Shown: positions 2 to 11,593, counted from the stretch's first letter. The stretch is DNA of 64,000 nucleotides from an uncultured Ruminococcus sp. (GCA_902773325.1 CACYDW010000173.1:11315-75314), one strand, 5' to 3'. Notes: generated by a model from the sequence alone, not told the origin. Translations and numbers: made by a program.

Positions 2-1015
2 CGCGGCAAGAGCACCCTTGCGGTCAAGGCAGGTACTGTCGTAAAAGAACCGGATCGGCTGATCCGTCAGATTGCATCCGAGCTTGAAAGAACGGGACTC
101 AGAGTAAAAACCGATATAGGCTTCTCGGAATACAGGATCGACATCGGTATTATAGATCCTGATGATCCTGAAAAATACATACTCGGTATTATGCTTGACG
201 GAACAGAGAGCACATCTGCAACGTCAACGGACAGATTCATACTCCAGCCGTCCGTACTCAATGGACTTGGCTGGCGCATTATGCGGCTCTGGACACTGGA
301 ATGGCTCGACGACAAGAAAAAGGTTCTGAAAATGATAACTGACGAAGTCAGTCGCTGCAAACAATCGGATATTTCTCAGGAAGCCTCCTCAGCTCCCGAC
401 CGCCGGAATGAAATTGAAAAGCTGTATGAGCAAAAGGAGGAAAAATATTGTTCTGCCGGTGTTGGATATAAGTCATATCCGCTTTCGGGAATGGGTACTC
501 CCGAGGACTTTGGTTCGGATTCTGCTGACAGAAAAATCCTCACTGCCTTCCGCCGCATTATCGATGCAGAAGCGCCGATAAGCCGGAAAGCACTTTTCCG
601 TAAGGTGATTTCTGCATGGGGTATTACAAGGCTCAGCCCCCGTGTGGAGACCAAGCTAGACAATGCTTTGGCGAAAATGGATCTTAAAATAACCAAAGAT
701 GAGGACAGGGTATTCTATTGGCGCGGTGATCAGCAGCCCGATGAATATAAAGCTTACCGCACAGAAGAGGAAACGGATTCCAAGCGTTCTATGGACGAAA
801 TATCCTCTTATGAAATAGCTAATGCCATCAGAGAGGTTCTTGAGGAACAGGTCAGTTTGACGAGGAAGGATCTGATTCGTGAAACTGCAAAGAAATTCGG
901 ATATCTGCGTCTGGGAGCGGTGATCGAGAACACGATCAGCTATGCTATTGATTCTGCCGGGAAGCATGGGCTTATCAAAGAAGAAAACGGTGACAGATTT
1001 ATACTTGTAAAATGA
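2..1015 (+). CDS. C-terminal fragment of a large helicase-like protein: endonuclease-like module plus DUF3320 tail (5' end outside window)
   Basis: The frame is open from the window edge, in the frame of listed ORF 191..1015. 'YRIDIGIIDPDDPEKYILGIMLDG...GWRIMRLWTLEW' resembles the restriction-endonuclease-like module. 'RKALFRKVISAWGITRLSPRVE...RVFYWRGDQ' resembles the DUF3320 tail of DUF4011/AAA_11/AAA_12 superfamily-I helicase-like proteins. Recognised by eye only. Confidence 0.6.
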   Translation, partial: RGKSTLAVKAGTVVKEPDRLIRQIASELERTGLRVKTDIGFSEYRIDIGIIDPDDPEKYILGIMLDGTESTSATSTDRFILQPSVLNGLGWRIMRLWTLEWLDDKKKVLKMITDEVSRCKQSDISQEASSAPDRRNEIEKLYEQKEEKYCSAGVGYKSYPLSGMGTPEDFGSDSADRKILTAFRRIIDAEAPISRKALFRKVISAWGITRLSPRVETKLDNALAKMDLKITKDEDRVFYWRGDQQPDEYKAYRTEEETDSKRSMDEISSYEIANAIREVLEEQVSLTRKDLIRETAKKFGYLRLGAVIENTISYAIDSAGKHGLIKEENGDRFILVK

Positions 1016-1191: not shown

Positions 1192-2169
1192 TTACCGGCT
1201 GTCAAAAATCGACAGCTCCAGATCATTATCCCGGAGAAATGTGTCAAGAGCCTCATTCCAACTGTTATATGCCGGGTCATCCTTATGGCTTGAGAGGAGC
1301 TCGGTCTCCTCAAGATACATTCCTAAATACGAGGTTGCCTTTATTGCGCCGAATATGTTAAGATGGTCGCCTTTATCTCTGGTATCGTGCTTCCAGTCGA
1401 TCGGGATTTCCGAACGCAATGTGTTCATATCAATAAAGTCTACACCGATCTCCTCTGCAAACCGCTCGATACTGTTGTGCTTTGACATATTCCAGTTTTT
1501 CGTACTCGGTGTACTCATTAAAACAAGTTTTGCTCCATGATTTGAACAAAATGACTGAATCATCTTGACATACGTTTCATTTGCCGGAGTTATTTCTGCA
1601 TAATTGTTTGAAGGCTTCATATATTTACCGGTCTTTGCGGGAGCAATTTTGTCGCTGTAAATATATCCCTTTCCGGAATGCAGATATGTATAATCTACAG
1701 GAGCTATCACATCGTTGAACGAAATGTTTTTCCAGCGATCGTGGTATTTCAGAGCAGGAAAGAGTATTTCAGTGCTATGGAGGAGTGCGTTATCCATAGT
1801 AAAATACCTGAAAATCATATCCGTTTCAAGAATCACGATCTTCGGCGACTGGTGTTTGAATGTGTCCAGAAGAAATTGTGTGGTATACCAGAGATGCTGT
1901 CCCTTGCTGCTGCAGGAAAAAGAGGTATAACCATATTTTTCCCAAAGCTGAAGAGGAACTATCGAGCTATAGAGTTCACTGTCGCCAAGCAAAAGAACGT
2001 CAACCGTGTTTTCAGGCTCTCCAAGCACACCGTAGGCAATATAATCGTGCTTCCATTGGTTTTTAGTATTGTCTTTCGGACTAAGAATCTGAGATATGCC
2101 GGATAAAATAATCAGGAAGATCATTATAAACAGGATAGCCTTTGCTGTATGGATGTATTTTGACTGCAT
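1192..2169 (-). CDS. Membrane-anchored GDSL/SGNH-family protein (DltD/AlgJ-like position in the operon)
   Basis: It has an N-terminal TM helix (AILFIMIFLIILSGI) and a GDSL block I, 'VDVLLLGDSELYS'. It is the last gene of the operon, 12 nt after the MBOAT gene. Confidence 0.6.
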   Translation of the reverse strand: MQSKYIHTAKAILFIMIFLIILSGISQILSPKDNTKNQWKHDYIAYGVLGEPENTVDVLLLGDSELYSSIVPLQLWEKYGYTSFSCSSKGQHLWYTTQFLLDTFKHQSPKIVILETDMIFRYFTMDNALLHSTEILFPALKYHDRWKNISFNDVIAPVDYTYLHSGKGYIYSDKIAPAKTGKYMKPSNNYAEITPANETYVKMIQSFCSNHGAKLVLMSTPSTKNWNMSKHNSIERFAEEIGVDFIDMNTLRSEIPIDWKHDTRDKGDHLNIFGAIKATSYLGMYLEETELLSSHKDDPAYNSWNEALDTFLRDNDLELSIFDSR

Positions 2170-2181
2170 AGCTGTCCTCCC

Positions 2182-3813
2182 TCAGAATTGTGCATACATC
2201 GGATCTACAGGCAGATACCCGAACCCGTATGCTCCGAAAATAATGATATAAAAAATCAACGCATATAATACGCCCCAGCGAACAACAATATTCTTCTTTG
2301 CGAGTGTTTCACGGATGCTGATACCCTTTTCGTTTATCAGACTGACTATGAAAACGATTATAACCGTTATTCCGACAATAAGAATATCATGTCCATCGAT
2401 TCCAAGCTTATGGAATGTTTGCAGGCTCAGTTCGTTTATAGAGAGGGAAGTAAAAATCCTGCGGAACAGCGATAATCCTGCCATAAATCCATTTGCCCTG
2501 AAGAAAAGCTCTCCGATCACAACAAGAATCGTTGTGCGTATGATCTGCATGAAACGGTACGGTTTTCCGTCTGTATTGATATGCAGTCTTGCATTGAATG
2601 CCGCAGCGGCAGGTGCAGTCATACTCTCCAGAAGAATCAGTGTAAAGTGGTACATTCCGAAAAAAATGAAGCTCCACGCAGCACCGTGCCAGAGACCGTT
2701 GCAGAACCAGACACAGAAAAGTGCAATTCCTCCGGCAACCAGAGGACCAAAATGATTTCCAAGCTTTTTACGTGCCGAAGAGGTCAATTGTTTCATTCTT
2801 TTTGTACTGGTAACGGGATAGAATATATAGTCACGAAACCAGGCACCGAGAGATATGTGCCATCTTTTCCAGAACTCCGAGATAGAACGCGAGAAAAACG
2901 GTCTTTCAAAGTTTTCGGGCATTGTCAATCCGAAGATCTGACCGATACCGGCAACAGCATCCATTACACCTGAAAAATCCATATAAAGCTGAATGGTATA
3001 GCAAACAGCTCCAAGAAGAATGATCACTCCGCCATAGCTGTTTGATTTGTCAAAAATCCCTGTAACAAGCGGGTTGAGTCGGTCTGCAATAACAATTTTT
3101 TTCATCATGCCGTAGAGCATACGCTGAAGTCCGAGAGTGAGATCGTTATACTTGATCGGACCTGCCTGCCAGAGCTGTTCGGCTGTCTGGGAATAACGGC
3201 AGATCGGTCCTTCCACGATCTGCGGAAAAAAGCTCATGAACAAGGCAAGACGAAAAAAGCTTCTGTCACACTTTACAAGTCCATGATACACATCAATAAT
3301 ATATGACACGGCCTGAAGAGTAAAGAAAGAGATTCCGATGGGCATCGCAAATTGGGGAATATCCAACACGACTGTGCTTTTGCTGAGTGAAAGAAGAAGG
3401 TTGATATTTCCTACAAAAAATCCGGAATATTTGACCACAAGTAAGAATCCGATATGCAAAAGTACTCCTAAAAAAACCACGCGCTGCTGACGATGTATAA
3501 ACTTCTGCTTAGCGATCTTACGTTCTTCCTTCGGTAACTCTTTGATATGCTCCTTCATCTGCATTTGGATCCTGTCGATCCAAATGCCAAGAAGAAAAAC
3601 CGACAGGGTCGACAATATCAGATATACGACCAGTGTTCCGCTTACGAACCAGTAAAAAAGATAGCTTGCAAAAAGCAGAAAATACTTTTTCCAGGATTTC
3701 GGAACAATCGAATAAACAAGCAAACAGGCAGGAAAAAACAAGAACAAAAAGGTCATAGAAAAGAAGGATGTCATATCCTTTCCACAGCCTGCAAGCAGAA
3801 AAGTCGGATCCAT
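2182..3813 (-). CDS. MBOAT-family membrane O-acyltransferase (DltB/AlgI-like)
   Basis: It is a polytopic membrane protein. The invariant MBOAT histidine context is present in 'FWKRWHISLGAWFRDYIFYP'. An AGGAGGAA RBS precedes the ATG at 3813. Confidence 0.85.
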   Translation of the reverse strand: MDPTFLLAGCGKDMTSFFSMTFLFLFFPACLLVYSIVPKSWKKYFLLFASYLFYWFVSGTLVVYLILSTLSVFLLGIWIDRIQMQMKEHIKELPKEERKIAKQKFIHRQQRVVFLGVLLHIGFLLVVKYSGFFVGNINLLLSLSKSTVVLDIPQFAMPIGISFFTLQAVSYIIDVYHGLVKCDRSFFRLALFMSFFPQIVEGPICRYSQTAEQLWQAGPIKYNDLTLGLQRMLYGMMKKIVIADRLNPLVTGIFDKSNSYGGVIILLGAVCYTIQLYMDFSGVMDAVAGIGQIFGLTMPENFERPFFSRSISEFWKRWHISLGAWFRDYIFYPVTSTKRMKQLTSSARKKLGNHFGPLVAGGIALFCVWFCNGLWHGAAWSFIFFGMYHFTLILLESMTAPAAAAFNARLHINTDGKPYRFMQIIRTTILVVIGELFFRANGFMAGLSLFRRIFTSLSINELSLQTFHKLGIDGHDILIVGITVIIVFIVSLINEKGISIRETLAKKNIVVRWGVLYALIFYIIIFGAYGFGYLPVDPMYAQF

Positions 3814-3819
3814 CAGATA

Positions 3820-4047
3820 TTATTCCTCCTGCAAACGCTCGATCATTTTCATCATGGCTGCAGCGGAGTTGAAATTTGCAGGAACAATCTCCACAGCGGG
3901 GACAGTGATATCATATTCATCTTCAAGCTCTGCGACCAAGGCGATAATATCAAGAGAAGACAGAAAATGACCGTCTACCAGATCAGTGCAGTTTTCATAG
4001 TCTGTACCCGGGCGAATATCCTCCAGTATTTCGATAAGTCTTTCCAT
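3820..4047 (-). CDS. Acyl/aminoacyl carrier protein (DltC-like, 75 aa)
   Basis: 'MERLIEILEDI...DGHFLSSLDIIALVAELEDEY' carries a phosphopantetheine-type Ser in the LSSLD context. I start it at the ATG at 4047, because the listed 112-aa ORF (to 4158) would overlap the upstream decarboxylase. Confidence 0.75.
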   Translation of the reverse strand: MERLIEILEDIRPGTDYENCTDLVDGHFLSSLDIIALVAELEDEYDITVPAVEIVPANFNSAAAMMKMIERLQEE

Positions 4048-4048
4048 T

Positions 4049-5236
4049 TTAATACATCCTTTCATATTCAGGTTTATTGATCGTACAGGTTTCAAAGGAA
4101 GAACGTACACGATAAAGATCGCCGTTCTCTTTAAGAATATATGCAGCGGGAAGATCACGGCTGAGCAGAAGGGAAATGCCTTCTGTCATGCAGTATGCGC
4201 CTGCTTTTTCAAAGCAAAGCACATCTCCGACATGGATAGGCGGAAGGTTGATTTGTTTGACCATGATGTCATTCATCGTACACAAAGCTCCACAGATCGT
4301 CCATTCTTTTTCAGGACTGATATCTTCTTTTCCAACGACAGAAACAAACGGGTGCTTCATTGCCATATACTGTCCGAAATATGTAATATGGTGCATTCCA
4401 CCGTCTGTAATAGCATAAGCTGTGCCTTTGTTTTCCTTGATATCCACAATATGTGTATAATATCGTCCGCAGGACGCGGCAATGCTCCGACCGGATTCTA
4501 TGATCAGCGAAGCTTTACATTTCATATTTCCGATCATGGCTGAGAATTCCGTGAGAATACTCTGTTCATCCAGTTTTTCTTCCGAAAAATACGAAACCGG
4601 GAATCCGGTTCCATATTCGAGTGCGGGCACAGAATATCCGAAACGCTCCTCAAGGCTGAGAATATATCGGTCAAGATAGGAAAGCTCTCTGGCATATTTC
4701 TTTACAGAAGTCTTTTGAGTACCGGAAAAAAATTGTATTCCGGTGATATCAAGCAGAGGATACTTTTCCCTGTCACGGATCATTCTATCAAGATCCTGTT
4801 CGTCAAGTCCGAACTGACTTCCGTTTGTAAGCCTCGGAAGGATCCGGAGCGGATTCCCGCATTCTCCCGACAATTCGCAAAGCTGCTCGTACTGAAGAAC
4901 AGACTCAACAGTAATAATACCATGAAAGTCCTGATCCGATGCAAGTCTTTTCAGAAATGCAGGGCTTTTGTAAATACCGGAAATGACCATCTTCCGGGTG
5001 TCTATTCCAAGTGAAAAGCATATTTCAGCTTCACCCGGAGAACAGATCTCGAGCCGTTCGACATAGTCTGCGATTTCTCCCGTTATAAGTGGATTCGCCT
5101 TTACTGCATAGCACAGTCCCGTACCTGCGGGCAGATTTTCACGCAAATATGCAGTCCTTTGCTTCAATTGCTCAGCATCAAACAAATAAAAAGCTTTATC
5201 GTTGATGCTGAGCAGATTTTTTGTCAGATCAGTCAA
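4049..5236 (-). CDS. Fold-type-III PLP-dependent decarboxylase (Orn/DAP/Arg decarboxylase family, LysA-like)
   Basis: 'LCYAVKANPLITGEI' is the PLP-lysine motif of the family-2 decarboxylases. 'EICSPGEAEI' and the C-terminal 'ICGALCTMNDI' beta-barrel region are also present. Confidence 0.8.
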   Translation of the reverse strand: MTDLTKNLLSINDKAFYLFDAEQLKQRTAYLRENLPAGTGLCYAVKANPLITGEIADYVERLEICSPGEAEICFSLGIDTRKMVISGIYKSPAFLKRLASDQDFHGIITVESVLQYEQLCELSGECGNPLRILPRLTNGSQFGLDEQDLDRMIRDREKYPLLDITGIQFFSGTQKTSVKKYARELSYLDRYILSLEERFGYSVPALEYGTGFPVSYFSEEKLDEQSILTEFSAMIGNMKCKASLIIESGRSIAASCGRYYTHIVDIKENKGTAYAITDGGMHHITYFGQYMAMKHPFVSVVGKEDISPEKEWTICGALCTMNDIMVKQINLPPIHVGDVLCFEKAGAYCMTEGISLLLSRDLPAAYILKENGDLYRVRSSFETCTINKPEYERMY

Positions 5237-5239
5237 GCT

Positions 5240-6754
5240 TTATTTCCCCCCTATTTGTTTGATTGTTTTCTTACGATCAATCTTTCCGTTCTTATTGAGA
5301 ACCATTGATTCGATCTGCCGGATAGAACCCGGAATCATAAAAAACGGAAGAGTTTCCTGTAAGGTTCTGTGAAGGGTATTTTTATCTATTGTTCCGACAT
5401 AATAACCCTTAAGACGCTGTTTTTTTTCATCAAAGATGCAGATGCATCTCTCTACTCCATCGACAGCGGACATTGCTTTTTCAATTTCCTCAAGCTCCAC
5501 CCGATGACCGAGGTATTTGATCTGATTATCAGCTCTTCCGCAATAAACAAGTTCGCCGTCCGAATTGTAATATCCAAGATCGCCGGTAAGATATACCGTT
5601 TCAGGATAATCTGACTGGAGTGGATTGTTGATAAAGCTTTCCGCAGTCTTTTCGGGACACCCGTAATATCCCAGCGCGAGAGCCGAGCCGCGGACGGTGA
5701 TCATACCGGTTTCGCCGACAGAATCAATTCTCTTGTGCTCACTATCCAGAAGAAAAACATCTTCGTTCGGAAAAGGCTGTCCGATCGGTATCCCATCAGA
5801 ATAGTCCCTGTCTTTGCTGAGAATATGGTAAGTGCAGTTGCAGGTGATTTCTGTCGGTCCGTAAAGATTGACATACATTGCATCGGGAAGATGCTTTTTC
5901 CATTCAGAAAGATGTTTGTAAGGCATGACCTCACCGCTGAAAAGAATCTTTTTGACGGTTTCGGGAGTTTTGTAATCCAGTCCGTGAAAAGTGCTTATAA
6001 GGCACAAAGCGGAAACAGCCCAGATCATGACGGTTATACGACGCTCGCACAGGTAGTCGATCAGCGCAGCGGGTGCCGAAAACAGTGCTCGCGGAACGAT
6101 TACAAGAGTTGCACCTACTGACATCGCGGAATATATATCCTTTACGGAAACGTCAAAATCAAACGGAGCCTGATTTGCAATCACATCGTTTTCCGTAATT
6201 CCGAAAATATCTGTAAAAAAGCCGATAAAATCAATGACGCTTCTGTGTGAAACGGCAATTCCCTTCGGTATGCCGCTTGAACCGGAGGTGAAATTGATGT
6301 AGAGGGGGTCTGTATCGATCATCGTTCTGCGAAGCTTGCAAAGGGAATCCTCATCAGGGATACCATTAAAAATATCCTCCGTCAGAAGAATACATGTCCC
6401 CGGGAAGAGTGCCGCTGCTTTTTCGGAGAGGCTTTTTTCAGTAATAATATACTGTGTCCGGAGAACAGACTGTATCTGACAAAGACGATTATCAGGAAGC
6501 CCGACATTCAGCATACAATAACAGCATCCGGCATATACCGCTCCGAAAAAAGCACAGAGTGCATCCATGCCTTTTTCCATAAACACTCCTACAGTTGTTT
6601 TCTCAGCACCGCTTTTCAGAAGCGACGTTCCCGCAGCTTTGCTTCGCAGAAGCAGTTCCGCAAACGACAAGGATTTTTCACCTTCGGAAACAGCAGCTTT
6701 TTCAGGGAATTTTTTTGCACTATTTTCTATAAGCTCCAATACATTTATTCTCAT
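5240..6754 (-). CDS. Stand-alone amino-acid adenylation enzyme (DltA-like, AMP-binding superfamily)
   Basis: The core motifs are 'FTSGSSGIPKGIAVSH', 'YGPTE', 'YLTGDLGYY' and 'GRADNQIKYLGHRVELEEIE'. 'APFDFDVSV' retains the Asp typical of alpha-amino-acid-activating A domains. At 504 aa it has no condensation or thiolation domains. Confidence 0.85.
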   Translation of the reverse strand: MRINVLELIENSAKKFPEKAAVSEGEKSLSFAELLLRSKAAGTSLLKSGAEKTTVGVFMEKGMDALCAFFGAVYAGCCYCMLNVGLPDNRLCQIQSVLRTQYIITEKSLSEKAAALFPGTCILLTEDIFNGIPDEDSLCKLRRTMIDTDPLYINFTSGSSGIPKGIAVSHRSVIDFIGFFTDIFGITENDVIANQAPFDFDVSVKDIYSAMSVGATLVIVPRALFSAPAALIDYLCERRITVMIWAVSALCLISTFHGLDYKTPETVKKILFSGEVMPYKHLSEWKKHLPDAMYVNLYGPTEITCNCTYHILSKDRDYSDGIPIGQPFPNEDVFLLDSEHKRIDSVGETGMITVRGSALALGYYGCPEKTAESFINNPLQSDYPETVYLTGDLGYYNSDGELVYCGRADNQIKYLGHRVELEEIEKAMSAVDGVERCICIFDEKKQRLKGYYVGTIDKNTLHRTLQETLPFFMIPGSIRQIESMVLNKNGKIDRKKTIKQIGGK

Positions 6755-7121
6755 GTCTGTCCCTTATTCACTCCTTTTATTTATTATTATATCATCTATT
6801 ATAGATCTTCCTCCAGAATTCTACACTTATTTTGAATGATAGTCAAGTATAATTAACGCTTTTTTCAATGCAAACGTATGAAAATCAATCAGGAAATGTT
6901 ATAAATATACGATACTGCAATGTATAAACAATCATGGAATCTATCGTGTTTTGCGGATCAATCATCTGAGCTGTGTCGATAAACAATTCCGACATGATTT
7001 TCGGTTTTCAAGCAGTATAATCAGGTTGAAATCATAACCCCCGTTCAGCAGCCGGAAAAGCAGCTAATAGAACGGCATTTTGGAGATTATCAAACAGAAC
7101 TGATGAAACAGGAGGTATTCT

Positions 7122-8027
7122 ATGCTTGACAGTATTATTCTCAGGAGCAAGGCAGACAGAAAAACACGCGAGATCCTGATCGGCAGTCTGCTCACAGATT
7201 ACGGCTTTCTTACCCGCGATACAATTGGAGAGAGCCGCTGTGCAAGGCCCATCGACCTGCTCAGTGTCGGCAGCCGCAGAAAGCAGGTATTGCTGACAGC
7301 AGGCTATCACGGTATGGAATGGATCACAACATTATTGTTGTTAAGATTTATGGACGATGTGTGTCATTCTATACTGACAGGAGAAACCATGTGCGGTGTG
7401 AAGCTTGCGCCGCTCCTTAATCAGCGGGGACTTGCACTGATACCGTGCGTCAATCCCGACGGGGTCGAGATACAAATCAACGGTGCCGGTACTGCGGGAG
7501 CATACGAAGCACTTGTAACAGATGCGAGCGGAGGCGATACATCCCATTGGCAGGCAAATGCCTGTGGAGTAGACATCAATCATAATTTTGCTGCCTGTTG
7601 GAACGAACTGAAAGCTATGGAGCTTTCCAATGGCATCAAAGCGCCGGCTCCCACCCGATACGGAGGCGAATATCCCGAAAGTGAACCGGAGAGCCGTTCG
7701 GTTGCATCGTATTGCCGTACCGGAAATATCACACACGCACTTGCATTTCATAGTCAGGGGGAGGAAATCTATTGGGATTTCGGCGAATACCGCGCAGAGG
7801 AATCCAGACAAATGGCACTTTCTATGTCACAATCCAGCGGATATACCGTCAGTGAACCGACAGGGCTTGCTGTTGGGGGTGGCTTTAAGGATTGGTTTGT
7901 CAGTAAGTTCGGACGCCCGGCTTTTACGATCGAGGTAGGGAAGGGCACAAACCCGCTTCCAATGAAGGACTTTGACGGTATATATGATAAAATCAAGGAA
8001 ATGCTTGTGCTTTCTCTGGTACTGTAA
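7122..8027 (+). CDS. M14-family zinc peptidase, gamma-D-glutamyl-(L)-meso-diaminopimelate peptidase-like
   Basis: 'GYHGMEWIT' supplies the HxxE zinc ligands. 'NPDGVEI', 'DINHNF', 'FHSQGEEIYW' and 'AFTIEVGKG' are also present. An AGGAGG RBS sits 7 nt upstream. Confidence 0.8.
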   Translation: MLDSIILRSKADRKTREILIGSLLTDYGFLTRDTIGESRCARPIDLLSVGSRRKQVLLTAGYHGMEWITTLLLLRFMDDVCHSILTGETMCGVKLAPLLNQRGLALIPCVNPDGVEIQINGAGTAGAYEALVTDASGGDTSHWQANACGVDINHNFAACWNELKAMELSNGIKAPAPTRYGGEYPESEPESRSVASYCRTGNITHALAFHSQGEEIYWDFGEYRAEESRQMALSMSQSSGYTVSEPTGLAVGGGFKDWFVSKFGRPAFTIEVGKGTNPLPMKDFDGIYDKIKEMLVLSLVL

Positions 8028-8052
8028 ATTTCAGTAGCTCTCTCTTGTATGC

Positions 8053-8081
8053 TTGTAAAATGGTTTGACTTGTGGTATAGT
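8053..8081 (+). promoter_or_regulatory. SigA-type promoter candidate
   Basis: TTGTAA, then 17 nt, then TATAGT, with a TG extended -10. It lies upstream of the lipoprotein and met genes. Confidence 0.4.
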
Positions 8082-8111
8082 AATATAAAACATTATGCAA
8101 GGAGAATCAGT

Positions 8112-8609
8112 ATGATAAGGAAAAATAATGTCACGTTTTTAACGTTGCTTCTGGTTGCCCTGATGCTTGGCATCTTTGCAGGCGGTTGTAATATGGAACA
8201 TCAGAAGCAAAATGAAGAGTATGTTGCATCAGTAAAGCAGCTCGTGAATGATGCTGTCACATATACAAGAGCCATGCGGGAACAGGCGGACGCTTTTGAT
8301 TGTCAGAATACAGCCTCCGGCAAGGATTACATCGAAGTGCTTACTTCGATTGAGGATATCTGCTCAAAGCTGCTTGCACTGGATACACCGGAATACTTTG
8401 CGGAGTCGGGAGGCTCACTTCATGCTGCTGCACAGGATTCGCTTGATGCCGTATCCGAAATAAAAGGTCTTGCCGTATATGCACTTGATAACAAGGATGA
8501 TACACTGTATCGGCGCAGCGTACAGGAGCTTACCGAACGTTATCAGACAGGTTATGAGAGCGTGGTCAATTGTTCTTCTTTGATTCAGACGGACTGGCGT
8601 AATGCGTGA
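8112..8609 (+). CDS. Putative lipoprotein, unknown function
   Basis: The signal peptide plus lipobox is 'LLLVALMLGIFAGGC'. An AGGAGA RBS precedes the ATG at 8112, so the listed start at 8049 is probably too early. Confidence 0.55.
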   Translation: MIRKNNVTFLTLLLVALMLGIFAGGCNMEHQKQNEEYVASVKQLVNDAVTYTRAMREQADAFDCQNTASGKDYIEVLTSIEDICSKLLALDTPEYFAESGGSLHAAAQDSLDAVSEIKGLAVYALDNKDDTLYRRSVQELTERYQTGYESVVNCSSLIQTDWRNA

Positions 8610-8637
8610 AGAAATGCAGCAAGAAGGTGATACCGTT

Positions 8638-9234
8638 ATGAACAGCGGTGATATCAGAATCATCGAGGCGACCTATGACGAGGTCGCTGTCAATCCCTGT
8701 GAGCTTGCTCTCAGGCTTCATACCGAAAGAGGATATGTTGATGAACATATCCTCAGGTGTATGGATATGCTCCGCAGAACAGCACATTATAAATGTGTAT
8801 ATATCCGTACAGATGTTGATTTATCCCGAAACGGTCAATGTGACTTCGGATTCATGAATATTCACAGTAAACATCTTTATACGAATCTGAATCAGTGCCG
8901 ACAGGCTTTTGTGATGGCACTGACGATCGGAAGAGATGTAGACCGGCTGCTTCAACGATTGAATATCACTTCTCAGGCGGATCATTTTATTGCAGACGGT
9001 ATTGCTTCTGCCGCTATAGAGTCCTTTTGCGATTATGCATCGGATATCATGAAGGCAGATCTCAATTGTGCACCGCGGTTCAGTCCGGGGTATGGAGATG
9101 TATCAATTGAATATCAGAAGCCGCTTCTGGAACGGCTTCATGCAGCCAGACTGCTGGGGATTACGCTTAATCAGGCGTATTTTATGACACCGTCAAAATC
9201 TATTACAGCTATAATGGGGATTCAAAATGAATAA
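8638..9234 (+). CDS. Methionine synthase reactivation (AdoMet-binding) domain protein, stand-alone
   Basis: 'APRFSPGYGDVSIEYQKPLLERL...ITLNQAYFMTPSKSITAIMGI' matches the Met_synt_B12 activation domain. The start at 8638 has a GAAGGTGA RBS; 8602 is an alternative. Confidence 0.75.
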   Translation: MNSGDIRIIEATYDEVAVNPCELALRLHTERGYVDEHILRCMDMLRRTAHYKCVYIRTDVDLSRNGQCDFGFMNIHSKHLYTNLNQCRQAFVMALTIGRDVDRLLQRLNITSQADHFIADGIASAAIESFCDYASDIMKADLNCAPRFSPGYGDVSIEYQKPLLERLHAARLLGITLNQAYFMTPSKSITAIMGIQNE

Positions 9235-11593
9235 AATAACGGATTTAATGAAATCAAAAAGACTGTATTTCGACGGCGGTACAGGTACTGTACTGCAAAA
9301 AATGGGACTGCCCTCGGGTCAGCCGCCAGAGCTTTGGAATCTTATGGAGCCGCAAAAGATCATTTCACTGCATAAAGCGTACCTCGACGCGGGCTGCAAT
9401 ATTATCAAAACCAATACCTTCGGCATTAACCGCGATAAATACCCGAATTACCGCGAATTGATTCGTGCGGGTATAGACTGCGCAAAAAAAGCGGTAGAAA
9501 ACCGCAGTGAAAAATTTATTGCTTTTGACATGGGACCTACCGGAAGGCTTTTAGAACCGTTGGGTGACCTGCCGTTTGAAGAAGCGGTTTCGCTTTTTGC
9601 AGATAATGTCAGAGCTGCATCAGAGTGCGGCATTGATCTGATACTGATCGAAACCATGAATGACAGCTATGAAACGAAAGCGGCAGTGCTTGCGGCAAAA
9701 GAAAACGCTGATGTACCTGTTTTTGTGACAAATGTATATGATGCAGACGGCAAACTGATGACAGGAGCTGATCCGGCGGCAATGATTGCTGTGCTGGAGG
9801 GTCTGAAGGTGGATGCACTCGGCATGAACTGTTCGTTAGGTCCTGATATCATGCTGAATATTATCGGAGAATTCAGGAAATATGCTTCTGTGCCGGTCAT
9901 TGTGAATCCAAATGCGGGACTGCCGGAGATTCGTGACGGTGAAACCGTTTTCAATATAGATGAAGATGATTTTTCGGACTATATGGTCAGTCTTGCACAG
10001 CAGGGTGCTTCTATTCTTGGCGGCTGCTGCGGCACCACACCCGACTATATAGCAAAAACGATTGCGAAAACCCGGTCGATACCTTATGAATACCCAACTG
10101 CTAAACCCGTTACGATGGTTTCCTCCTATACACATGCAGTTATAATCGATGATGACCCGATCCTGATCGGAGAACGAATCAATCCGACAGGTAAGCCGAA
10201 GCTTAAAGAAGCATTGAAAAACGGCGACATGAATTATCTGCTGAATGAAGCAGTCAGGCAGACCGATGCGGGTGTGCATATCCTTGATGTGAATGTCGGA
10301 CTTCCTGAAATCAATGAAACAGAAATGATGGTGCAAAGTGTTTCGGCTATTCAGGCGATCAGTGATACGCCGCTGCAAATTGATTCCACCAATTTTGATA
10401 CACTTGCTGCCGCTATGAGAGTCTATAACGGTAAGCCCCTTGTAAACTCCGTGAACGGTACAGAAGAAAGCATGATACATGTATTTCCCATTGTCCAAAA
10501 GTACGGCGGCGCGCTGATCGCACTGACTATTGATGAGAAGGGTATTCCGGATTCTGCACAGGAAAGAGCAGAAATTGCCAAAAAAATCATTGTCCGCGCT
10601 GCAGAGTATGGTATTTCCAAAAAGGATATTATAGTTGACCCGCTTGCACTCACGATCTCGTCAAACCCTGAAAGTGCAAGGGTTACACTTGAGGCAGTCC
10701 GGCTCATACGCGCACTCGGTGTAAAAACCAGTCTGGGAATCTCCAATATTTCCTTTGGTCTGCCGCAGAGAAATCTGATAACCAGCACCTTTTATGCAAA
10801 CGCACTTCAAAACGGTCTGAATTGTGCCATCATGAATCCCTTTGCTGCTGAAATGATGAATACCTATTATGCTTACCGTGCGCTGAATCAGTTGGATAAC
10901 GGCTGTGTGGATTACATCCGGTATGCTTCGGCATCCGAACAGCCTGCGGCTGCTGCTTCTCAGCCCAAAACGGAAACGCTGCACACCTGTATCGTGAAGG
11001 GACTTAAAGACAGAGCCGCTGCACAGACGATCAGTCTTTTGGAAACGTCTGAACCTATTGATGTTATCAATCATCATATTATACCCGCTCTGAACGAGAT
11101 CGGCACTGCCTTTGAACAAAAAAAAGCCTATCTGCCGCAGCTTCTGATGAGTGCCGAAACCGCTTCTGTTGCTTTTGAAGAGGTCAAGAAGAAAATACCG
11201 GTTGAACAAAAGGACAGCAGCAAGGCCATCGTTTTAGCAACCGTCAAGGGTGATATACATGATATCGGCAAAAATATCGTCAAGGTCCTGATGGAAAGCT
11301 ATGGCTTTACGGTGTATGATCTTGGCAGAGATGTTGCACCCGAAACAATACGCGACTGCGCTCTGGAGCATAACTGTATGCTTGTAGGGCTTAGTGCGCT
11401 TATGACAACAACAGTGCCGTCTATGGAGGAAACCATCAGATTGCTCCATGAAACGGATCCGGCTATCAAAACTCTTGTTGGCGGAGCGGTGCTGAATCAG
11501 GAATATGCGGATATGATCGGTGCGGATTTTTATGGGGCAGATGCCATGGACAGTGTAAGGTTCGCCGAGCGGTATTATAGCGGCCGTACCTGA
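9227..11593 (+). CDS. metH: Cobalamin-dependent methionine synthase core (Hcy-binding, pterin-binding and B12-binding modules)
   Basis: The homocysteine S-methyltransferase N-terminus ends with 'LGGCCGTTP'. The pterin-binding region contains 'INPTGKPKL' and 'SLGISNISFGLP'. The B12 loop is 'GDIHDIGKNIV' (DxHxxG). It overlaps the upstream gene by 8 nt. Confidence 0.9.
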   Translation: MNKITDLMKSKRLYFDGGTGTVLQKMGLPSGQPPELWNLMEPQKIISLHKAYLDAGCNIIKTNTFGINRDKYPNYRELIRAGIDCAKKAVENRSEKFIAFDMGPTGRLLEPLGDLPFEEAVSLFADNVRAASECGIDLILIETMNDSYETKAAVLAAKENADVPVFVTNVYDADGKLMTGADPAAMIAVLEGLKVDALGMNCSLGPDIMLNIIGEFRKYASVPVIVNPNAGLPEIRDGETVFNIDEDDFSDYMVSLAQQGASILGGCCGTTPDYIAKTIAKTRSIPYEYPTAKPVTMVSSYTHAVIIDDDPILIGERINPTGKPKLKEALKNGDMNYLLNEAVRQTDAGVHILDVNVGLPEINETEMMVQSVSAIQAISDTPLQIDSTNFDTLAAAMRVYNGKPLVNSVNGTEESMIHVFPIVQKYGGALIALTIDEKGIPDSAQERAEIAKKIIVRAAEYGISKKDIIVDPLALTISSNPESARVTLEAVRLIRALGVKTSLGISNISFGLPQRNLITSTFYANALQNGLNCAIMNPFAAEMMNTYYAYRALNQLDNGCVDYIRYASASEQPAAAASQPKTETLHTCIVKGLKDRAAAQTISLLETSEPIDVINHHIIPALNEIGTAFEQKKAYLPQLLMSAETASVAFEEVKKKIPVEQKDSSKAIVLATVKGDIHDIGKNIVKVLMESYGFTVYDLGRDVAPETIRDCALEHNCMLVGLSALMTTTVPSMEETIRLLHETDPAIKTLVGGAVLNQEYADMIGADFYGADAMDSVRFAERYYSGRT

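Follow-up and report, generated by a model that had tools for sequence, protein, structure and literature searches.

Why would an operon laid out like a D-alanylation (Dlt) system also encode a decarboxylase, and on what would that enzyme act? We addressed this question at a locus in a 64,000-nucleotide stretch of DNA from an uncultured Ruminococcus sp. (GCA_902773325.1, CACYDW010000173.1:11315-75314; the whole stretch is hereafter called the window), in which five consecutive open reading frames (ORFs) lie on the minus strand between positions 1192 and 6754, separated along the operon by gaps of 3, 1, 6 and 12 nt. A previous reading of the window, made from the sequence alone, had described these genes as a Dlt-like aminoacylation operon containing a pyridoxal 5'-phosphate (PLP)-dependent decarboxylase. 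ORF listing returned the same five genes and the same gaps, and all of the motifs quoted in that reading were present. No earlier description of the operon was found in the literature. In gene order, its components are:

5240-6754, minus strand: adenylation enzyme (A), 504 aa
4049-5236, minus strand: decarboxylase (DC), 395 aa, TTG start
3820-4047, minus strand: carrier protein (CP), 75 aa, MERLIEIL start
2182-3813, minus strand: MBOAT, 543 aa
2185-2202, minus strand: codons of the C-terminal MBOAT hexapeptide P538-M-Y540-A-Q-F543 (PMYAQF), an FxYxxF-type acyl-shuttle motif
1192-2169, minus strand: SGNH-fold protein (protein 5), 325 aa

We consider it probable, though well short of certain, that the operon encodes a self-sufficient machine for envelope aminoacylation, built from two known modules, in which aspartate (Asp) or glutamate (Glu) would be loaded onto CP, decarboxylated while attached to it, and the product esterified to a polymer. 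That product would most likely be beta-alanyl or gamma-aminobutyryl esters and not D-alanyl esters.

The five genes belong together. A family alignment of DC served to scan a single genome for each GTDB species. A relative was encoded in at least 513 of these genomes, and the 80 best loci, each from a different species and with 51-76% identity to the window DC, were taken as a synteny set in which locus content was determined by tblastn with the five window proteins. The order A, DC, CP, MBOAT, SGNH was kept in these loci wherever the contig was long enough, with two exceptions (L038 and L067 in our numbering, discussed below), and the A gene lay directly upstream and the CP gene directly downstream of DC in every locus with sufficient contig. 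This five-gene arrangement is far beyond chance. Because the linkage of DC is maintained in the same order across species, we regard DC as an integral part of the operon and not as a stray lysA.

The adenylation-decarboxylase-carrier trio

Four of the five proteins matched the Pfam families that the sequence-only reading had anticipated. For DC, the matches were to Orn_Arg_deC_N (62 bits) and Orn_DAP_Arg_deC (60 bits), with a weak match to Ala_racemase_N (22.5 bits, below the cutoff of 24.1); annotation pipelines label the protein 'diaminopimelate decarboxylase family protein', and NCBI gives some homologues the name 'alanine racemase'. Residues invariant in the DC family comprise K46 (the PLP lysine, within the CYAVKANP motif at residues 42-49), E247 and R250 (in ESGR), C319 (catalytic), D323 and Y348 (in GAY). 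Since the PLP lysine, the ESGR Glu and Arg, C319, D323 and Y348 are all kept, DC is best described as decarboxylase-type and not racemase-type.

The nearest familiar enzyme would be LysA, the diaminopimelate (DAP) decarboxylase, which had been offered as the precedent for DC together with a lysyl-type product. DC does share with LysA its fold and clade, the PLP Lys, the Gly loop, an EPGR-like ESGR motif, the catalytic Cys and the GAY Tyr. It differs in falling below the lysA cutoff (TIGR01048, 138.6 bits against 297.9), in its embedding in a conserved five-gene cassette, and in two replaced residues: in alignment with the Aquifex enzyme (2p3e), Tyr286, invariant in the DC family, stands where the RPxxY motif of DAP decarboxylases has its Arg, and Ser/Thr320 where CE(S/T)GD has its Glu. 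We take this Arg and this Glu to bind the distal end of DAP, as in the structures from M. tuberculosis and M. jannaschii. The top match in the PDB was instead BtrK (2j66/7ru7), at 113.7 bits for the single sequence and 134.9 bits for the family profile, compared with 81 and 115 bits, respectively, for the best DAP decarboxylase. The second-best profile match (6knh, 121.6 bits) is presumably SbnH, a decarboxylase of N-citryl-diaminopropionate, which is a conjugated amino acid. DC also shares the DGGMHH and G(T)Q motifs with BtrK. By these comparisons, DC is closer to BtrK than to the decarboxylases of free amino acids, and both the LysA precedent and the lysyl product are weakened. A sole housekeeping lysA, with no conserved linkage to the other four genes in related genomes, would have counted against the sequence-only reading; we found, on the contrary, that DC is linked in 80 loci and falls below the lysA cutoff.

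BtrK is one of the decarboxylases of this family shown by experiment to act on amino acids held by a carrier, converting Glu-S-BtrI to gamma-aminobutyrate (GABA)-S-BtrI (PMC7857480). CtaF likewise forms beta-Ala-S-CtaE from Asp-S-CtaE, and free Asp is not a substrate for it (PMC7183216), while VinO acts only after the adenylation enzyme VinN has loaded 3-methyl-Asp on the acyl carrier protein (ACP) VinL, a scheme that FlvN, FlvL and FlvO follow with Asp (PMC11284099, PMC11350588, PMC10662134). The substrates of these characterised thiotemplated precedents are all Asp, 3-methyl-Asp or Glu (PMC7183216, PMC11284099, PMC11350588). As in the operon, the Btr (butirosin), Cta (closthioamide) and Vin/Flv (macrolactam) pathways encode a fold-type-III PLP decarboxylase together with a stand-alone carrier protein and the enzyme that loads it; VinN and FlvN are, like A, ANL adenylation enzymes (PMC11284099), whereas BtrJ and CtaD belong to the ATP-grasp type. 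The A-DC-CP trio therefore corresponds to a known module, so far from antibiotic pathways, and DC is predicted by this analogy to decarboxylate a carrier-tethered amino acid. The surroundings differ, however. The Btr, Cta, Vin and Flv trios feed polyketide synthases, nonribosomal peptide synthetase (NRPS)-like enzymes or aminoglycoside tailoring, several of them with a protecting aminoacyl group, whereas the partners in the operon are the MBOAT and the SGNH-fold protein only. With these two as the only downstream partners, the output of the operon would be an envelope modification.

A second comparison is with the trio associated with exosortase-A, which comprises an AMP-ligase (TIGR03098, ligase_PEP_1), a PLP decarboxylase (TIGR03099, dCO2ase_PEP1) and an ACP, and to which the operon had been proposed as a relative. 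The two resemble each other in this combination of enzymes at envelope or exopolysaccharide loci, and TIGR03099 was the best NCBIfam match of DC (160.7 bits). The operon is a genuine relative of that trio without being one of its members, given that both curated cutoffs were missed by a wide margin (478.45 bits for TIGR03099; 592.35 bits for TIGR03098, against which A scored 188.2 bits), that A scored higher against NRPS and DltA models, and that the partners here are an MBOAT and an SGNH-fold protein.

CP matched Pfam PP-binding at 21.2 bits (cutoff 20.8) and, as its best NCBIfam match, DltC (NF003464, 26.2 bits, below the cutoff of 68); its PDB matches were the aminoacyl carrier protein 4h2s, peptidyl carrier proteins (PCPs) and DltC. 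The phosphopantetheine site would be Ser31 in FLSSLD (the quoted LSSLD motif spans residues 29-33), and S31 and L32 are invariant in 77 sequences. CP is of the aminoacyl-carrier or PCP/DltC type. Its start (window 4048-4065) differs between gene callers: in locus L082 the protein has 75 aa, and in L081 it has 81 aa and overlaps the DC end. The MERLIEIL start, which gives 75 aa, is favoured by the lengths of homologues and by conservation of the N terminus.

The substrate pocket of A bears most directly on the order of the reactions. A matched Pfam AMP-binding (201 bits) and TIGR01733 (308.6 bits), and fell below cutoff against DltA (NF003417, 276.2 bits, cutoff 476; TIGR01734, 266.9 bits, cutoff 559.85). 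Its best PDB matches were about equal, an NRPS adenylation (A) domain of LgrA at 177 bits and DltA at 174 bits. The FDFDVS motif (residues 198-203) does keep the A-domain Asp, as had been claimed, with its second Asp (D201) aligning with Asp235 of GrsA. Pairwise and multiple alignment with verified GrsA (1AMU) and Bacillus subtilis DltA (3E7W) gave the pocket code D201 V202 K205 S248 L271 S273 L297 C305 N306 K491 (DVKSLSLCNK), in which position 278 was ambiguous between the alignments (S248 or I245). Of 75 sequences (the window and 74 loci), 73 have exactly this code and two read DVKSISVCNK. For DltA, the code is DLMS[L/M]CTVAK, and a check of the numbering recovered D197, C269 and V301 of the B. 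cereus enzyme. The A pocket differs from that of B. cereus DltA at 6 of the 10 positions and from that of B. subtilis DltA at 7, including replacement of C269 by S273, of V301 by C305 and of Met by K205. Thus A is not of the D-Ala type.

Pocket position 239, on the floor of the pocket, is an invariant Lys (K205) that accompanies the Asp235 equivalent D201. An invariant Lys239 paired with Asp235 implies that the substrate of A has an ammonium and an additional anionic group, and the pocket would therefore fit a dicarboxylic amino acid before decarboxylation, not D-Ala, Lys, beta-Ala or GABA. A substrate that still bears its second carboxylate when it is activated also implies that decarboxylation follows loading. 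Classical Glu-activating domains likewise have Lys239. This invariant Lys bears out the earlier argument for a substrate with two carboxyl groups; of the two roles then proposed for the decarboxylase, action on a carrier-tethered residue is favoured and supply of a free amino acid is not.

The MBOAT and the SGNH-fold protein

The MBOAT (Pfam MBOAT, 49 bits) is related to DltB, which provided its only PDB sequence matches (8jem and 6bug, 99 bits); against the DltB model TIGR04091, it scored 154.3 bits (cutoff 375). W318 and the catalytic H319, in RWHISLG (residues 317-323), align with WHMSL of DltB and are invariant in 69 sequences. The protein is nonetheless about 130 residues longer than DltB, with two extra C-terminal transmembrane segments by hydropathy (475-493 and 509-527) that are followed by the PMYAQF hexapeptide. 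A sequence of the form P[IMLV]YAx[FY] ends the MBOAT in 68 of 68 loci, with the Tyr invariant. In Dlt systems, the FxYxxF hexapeptide sits on a separate microprotein, DltX, whereas in acetyl-CoA-using MBOATs such as PatA the motif is fused on two extra helices, an acyl-Tyr intermediate has been shown, and the systems lack a carrier protein (PMC12148441). By analogy, Tyr540 is predicted to be the acyl-accepting residue. No DltX-like small ORF was found upstream of the operon. Since the operon has both a carrier protein and a fused motif, it is a hybrid of Dlt and PatA-type architectures.

The likeness to the fused type extends to PatA/PatB and AlgI/AlgJ/AlgX, which also have two extra C-terminal helices ending in a Tyr hexapeptide and a separate SGNH partner. 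The motif of Neisseria gonorrhoeae PatA is FIYANF (PMC12148441), compared with PIYANF or PMYAQF here, so that the first position is Pro in the operon family and Phe in PatA. The acyl source also differs, in that the PatA/AlgI-type systems use acetyl-CoA and no carrier protein (PMC12148441), whereas the operon has a dedicated CP with its own loading enzymes.

Sequence searches with protein 5, including those with a family profile, gave no match in Pfam, NCBIfam or the PDB, and all of its homologues are annotated 'hypothetical'. Its AlphaFold2 model (from 33 sequences; pLDDT 92.1, pTM 0.89) has an N-terminal transmembrane helix (residues 2-29) and, according to Foldseek, an SGNH fold, consistent with the membrane-anchored GDSL protein that had been read from its LLLGDSELYS motif (residues 59-68). 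TesA matched at E 1e-5; DltD (6pfx) ranked ninth, behind TesA-type esterases (E 7.7e-5, TMq 0.40), and PatB (8tlb) ranked 32nd. Invariant residues are G62-D63-S64-E65, D265, G267, H269 and N271. Within the block D-T-R-D-K-G-D-H-L-N (262-271), H269 falls outside the canonical SGNH DxxH spacing, and the two candidates for the Asp of the triad, the invariant D265 (-4 from H269) and the nearly invariant D268 (-1), do not have that spacing either. By analogy, protein 5 is predicted to be an extracytoplasmic transferase that would move the acyl group from Tyr540 to an acceptor polymer.

How, then, does the operon stand to Dlt? Like Dlt, the operon pairs a stand-alone adenylation enzyme with a small carrier protein, and a DltB-related MBOAT with an SGNH-fold partner anchored in the membrane, and it would follow the same route from carrier thioester to Tyr ester to Ser ester to polymer. 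The operon differs in its added PLP decarboxylase, in an A pocket that is not of the D-Ala type and has Lys at 239, in a shuttle hexapeptide fused to the MBOAT in place of DltX, and in a protein 5 with no detectable sequence similarity to DltD. The operon works on Dlt lines but is not a member of that system, as the DltA, DltC and DltB equivalog cutoffs were all missed; the term 'Dlt-like' is apt for its architecture only.

Proposed mechanism and alternatives

Which genes are present and conserved, their folds and families, the residue patterns and the closest solved relatives are observed; from these we infer, as follows, in what order the steps run, which amino acid is used, which polymer accepts it and what the modification does for the cell. 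In the cytoplasm, A would activate, most likely, L-Asp via its beta-carboxyl or L-Glu via its gamma-carboxyl and thioesterify this dicarboxylic amino acid onto the phosphopantetheine of CP Ser31. DC would then remove the free alpha-carboxylate of the tethered residue, leaving beta-alanyl-S-CP or gamma-aminobutyryl-S-CP. At the membrane, His319 of the MBOAT would move the aminoacyl group from CP through the tunnel to the protein's own Tyr540, from which Ser64 of protein 5 would take it and esterify an extracytoplasmic polymer (teichoic acid or wall polysaccharide). The outcome would be a cationic modification functionally analogous to D-alanylation. Because no other biosynthetic gene is conserved nearby, the substrate is presumably a primary metabolite.

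Several points weigh against this pathway or loosen its details. The combination of Asp235, the classical alpha-amine ligand, with Lys239 would fit alpha-activated Glu or alpha-activated DAP equally well, and a PLP alpha-decarboxylase could not act on alpha-activated Glu. VinN binds the free carboxylate of its substrate via basic residues at 330/331; these positions are Cys and Asn in A, with the basic residue at 239, and the binding mode is therefore not that of VinN. Among thiotemplated decarboxylases, a structure exists for BtrK alone, and the BtrK match therefore cannot separate Glu from Asp. Gamma-aminobutyryl thioesters and esters can lactamise, and the operon has no protecting-group enzyme. 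Finally, two loci from metagenome-assembled genomes (MAGs) of Clostridiaceae (L038:221-3198 and L067:4980-7896) hold the A-DC-CP trio only, followed by dnaJ/dnaK or thrS in place of the MBOAT and SGNH genes; these may be rare exceptions or MAG artefacts, with the export half elsewhere, lost or misassembled. As for the amino acid, Asp, Glu and DAP are not separable by sequence. The BtrK match and Lys239 lean towards Glu, while the missing protecting-group enzyme and, on chemical grounds, the resistance of a beta-alanyl thioester to lactamisation lean towards Asp.

One alternative is the tethered version of the sequence-only reading, taken with DAP. If A activated meso- or LL-DAP at one alpha-carboxylate and DC removed the distal one, lysyl-S-CP would form and the polymer would be lysylated. 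Asp235 and Lys239, with the uncharged polar S, S, C and N and the hydrophobic V, L and L of the pocket, would suit the distal zwitterion of DAP, and loss of the Arg that presumably binds the carboxylate is expected if that end is the thioester; the Glu that presumably contacts the distal amine is lost as well, however, as it is in BtrK. Moreover, although DC falls in a DAP decarboxylase-related clade (PMC7857480), BtrK outscores every DAP decarboxylase, no characterised thiotemplated decarboxylase uses DAP, and Lys is abundant and directly adenylatable, which leaves such a detour without obvious rationale. We therefore regard lysylation through tethered DAP as unlikely. Supply of the amino acid, with DC acting on a free substrate (for example meso-DAP, Asp or Glu, giving Lys, beta-Ala or GABA, respectively) and A activating the product, would agree with the habits of most of the Orn/DAP/Arg decarboxylase family, whose members use free substrates, and with the pipeline name 'diaminopimelate decarboxylase family protein'. 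It is very unlikely all the same, as the invariant Lys239 has the wrong charge for Lys and would be unnecessary for beta-Ala or GABA, DC is below the lysA cutoff with two DAP decarboxylase residues changed, the nearest solved relatives act on conjugated substrates, and CtaF does not decarboxylate free Asp (PMC7183216).

It is also conceivable that this is an ordinary dlt operon, given its dltA-dltC-dltB-dltD architecture, in which the PLP enzyme is a housekeeping LysA or a racemase that supplies D-Ala; the name 'alanine racemase' given to some homologues at NCBI and the sub-cutoff match to Ala_racemase_N would point that way. This reading is largely refuted, and we give it hardly any credence: no Dlt equivalog cutoff was reached, the A pocket is 6-7 of 10 positions away from DltA, DC carries the C-terminal domain of decarboxylases and has the pyridine-N Glu (E247) and Cys319 in place of the racemase Arg/Tyr, and its linkage to the other four genes is kept in 80 species. 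A different doubt attaches to the last step, since the trio could function as proposed while the MBOAT-SGNH pair acylates another target (for example a lipid of the membrane, a glycan that is secreted or a protein), or while the SGNH protein releases the product as an esterase. Protein 5 does not appear to be a DltD orthologue, has no sequence match and is placed nearest to TesA-type esterases by the fold search, and no polymer-synthesis gene is linked. Nevertheless, envelope polymers are the target of every characterised bacterial MBOAT-SGNH pair that has the Tyr shuttle motif (PMC12148441), and both the transmembrane anchor and the conserved pairing agree with a transferase, so that another acceptor, or release of the product, seems improbable, to about the same degree as lysylation through DAP. 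Esterification of an envelope polymer with a decarboxylated Asp or Glu remains our preferred reading of the operon.

Distribution, flanking elements and biological meaning

The taxa with the cassette are almost all Clostridia (Ruminococcaceae, Oscillospiraceae, Acutalibacteraceae, Lachnospiraceae and Christensenellaceae) and include Ruminococcus bromii ATCC 27255 and Ruminococcoides intestinale. Complete or near-complete cassettes also occur on contigs labelled Bacteroidaceae and Erysipelotrichaceae (L021, CAVGCY010000031.1, and L009, CACXDM010000142.1, respectively); these labels may reflect binning errors or horizontal transfer, all other loci being from Clostridia.

In 16 of the 50 loci with enough flanking sequence, genes for an OmpR-type response regulator and a HisKA/HATPase histidine kinase immediately precede the cassette on its own strand. 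The pair is found beside the cassette of R. bromii ATCC 27255 and not beside that in the window. Such a neighbour is compatible with, and suggests, envelope-stress control in part of the family. Racemase, mutase, LtaS and glycosyltransferase genes were not conserved in the flanks of the 80 loci, where only the two-component system recurs. Clustering of flanking ORFs from the 80 loci likewise returned no conserved family but the two-component system, in an analysis in which exosortase/PEP-CTERM genes were not searched for specifically. Within the 64-kb window, no second decarboxylase, lysA or canonical dlt genes were found.

The remaining elements around the operon and its relatives are:

6818-6846, minus strand: promoter-like site TTGACT-17 nt-TAGAAT, a consensus match about 65 nt upstream of the A start
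1100-1147, no strand assigned: hairpin with a 20-bp stem (12 G-C pairs), between the operon end and a convergent DUF3320 gene
L028, L031, L039, L044, L047, L051-L055, L058, L059, L067, L070, L076 and L078: two-component system, in the 2.5 kb or so upstream of A

An AAGGAG ribosome-binding site lies between the promoter-like site and the A start. Promoter-like consensus sites in the region are no more numerous than the shuffled expectation, and the site at 6818-6846 is plausible because of its position only. The hairpin is likely a shared, bidirectional terminator, judging by its position and stem length only. The convergent ORF beyond it (191-1015, plus strand) corresponds to the C-terminal portion of a protein, with DUF3320 and an incomplete REase_MTES_1575 domain; the start of this gene is probably upstream of the listed ORF, and the gene may extend past the window start. 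On the other side, a divergent gene for a Peptidase_M14 zinc carboxypeptidase (7122-8027, plus strand; 96 bits) adjoins the promoter region of the operon. The same neighbour occurs in locus L081, and the linkage was not found in other species. Farther along the plus strand (8049-9234 and 9227-11593) are two ORFs without Pfam matches (186 and 210 aa) and then a B12-dependent methionine synthase with S-methyl_trans, Pterin_bind, B12-binding_2 and B12-binding domains; the 210-aa ORF and the start of metH overlap by 8 nt.

The genes of the operon currently go under labels such as 'DAP decarboxylase family protein', 'alanine racemase' and 'hypothetical protein'. If our model is right, they would represent an undescribed envelope modification and an evolutionary link between Dlt and PatA/AlgI-type systems. 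To our knowledge, the MBOAT would then be the first that is both carrier-protein-dependent and equipped with a fused acyl-shuttle motif, and this hybrid bears on the origin of DltX. Thiotemplated PLP decarboxylation, so far confined to antibiotic biosynthesis, would enter primary envelope biogenesis. As beta-Ala and Ala are isobaric, the modification could pass for alanylation by mass alone. It is a tentative possibility, to which we give somewhat less weight than to the pathway itself, that hundreds of gut and rumen Clostridia, including R. bromii, a keystone degrader of starch, put beta-alanyl or gamma-aminobutyryl esters on a wall or membrane polymer. D-alanylation would in that case not be the sole carrier-protein-dependent cationic esterification of Gram-positive envelopes, and an omega-amino acid would take its place in a large group of Firmicutes from gut and rumen. 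Surface charge and the stability of the ester would then be altered, as would resistance to cationic peptides, the adsorption of phages and recognition by innate immunity.

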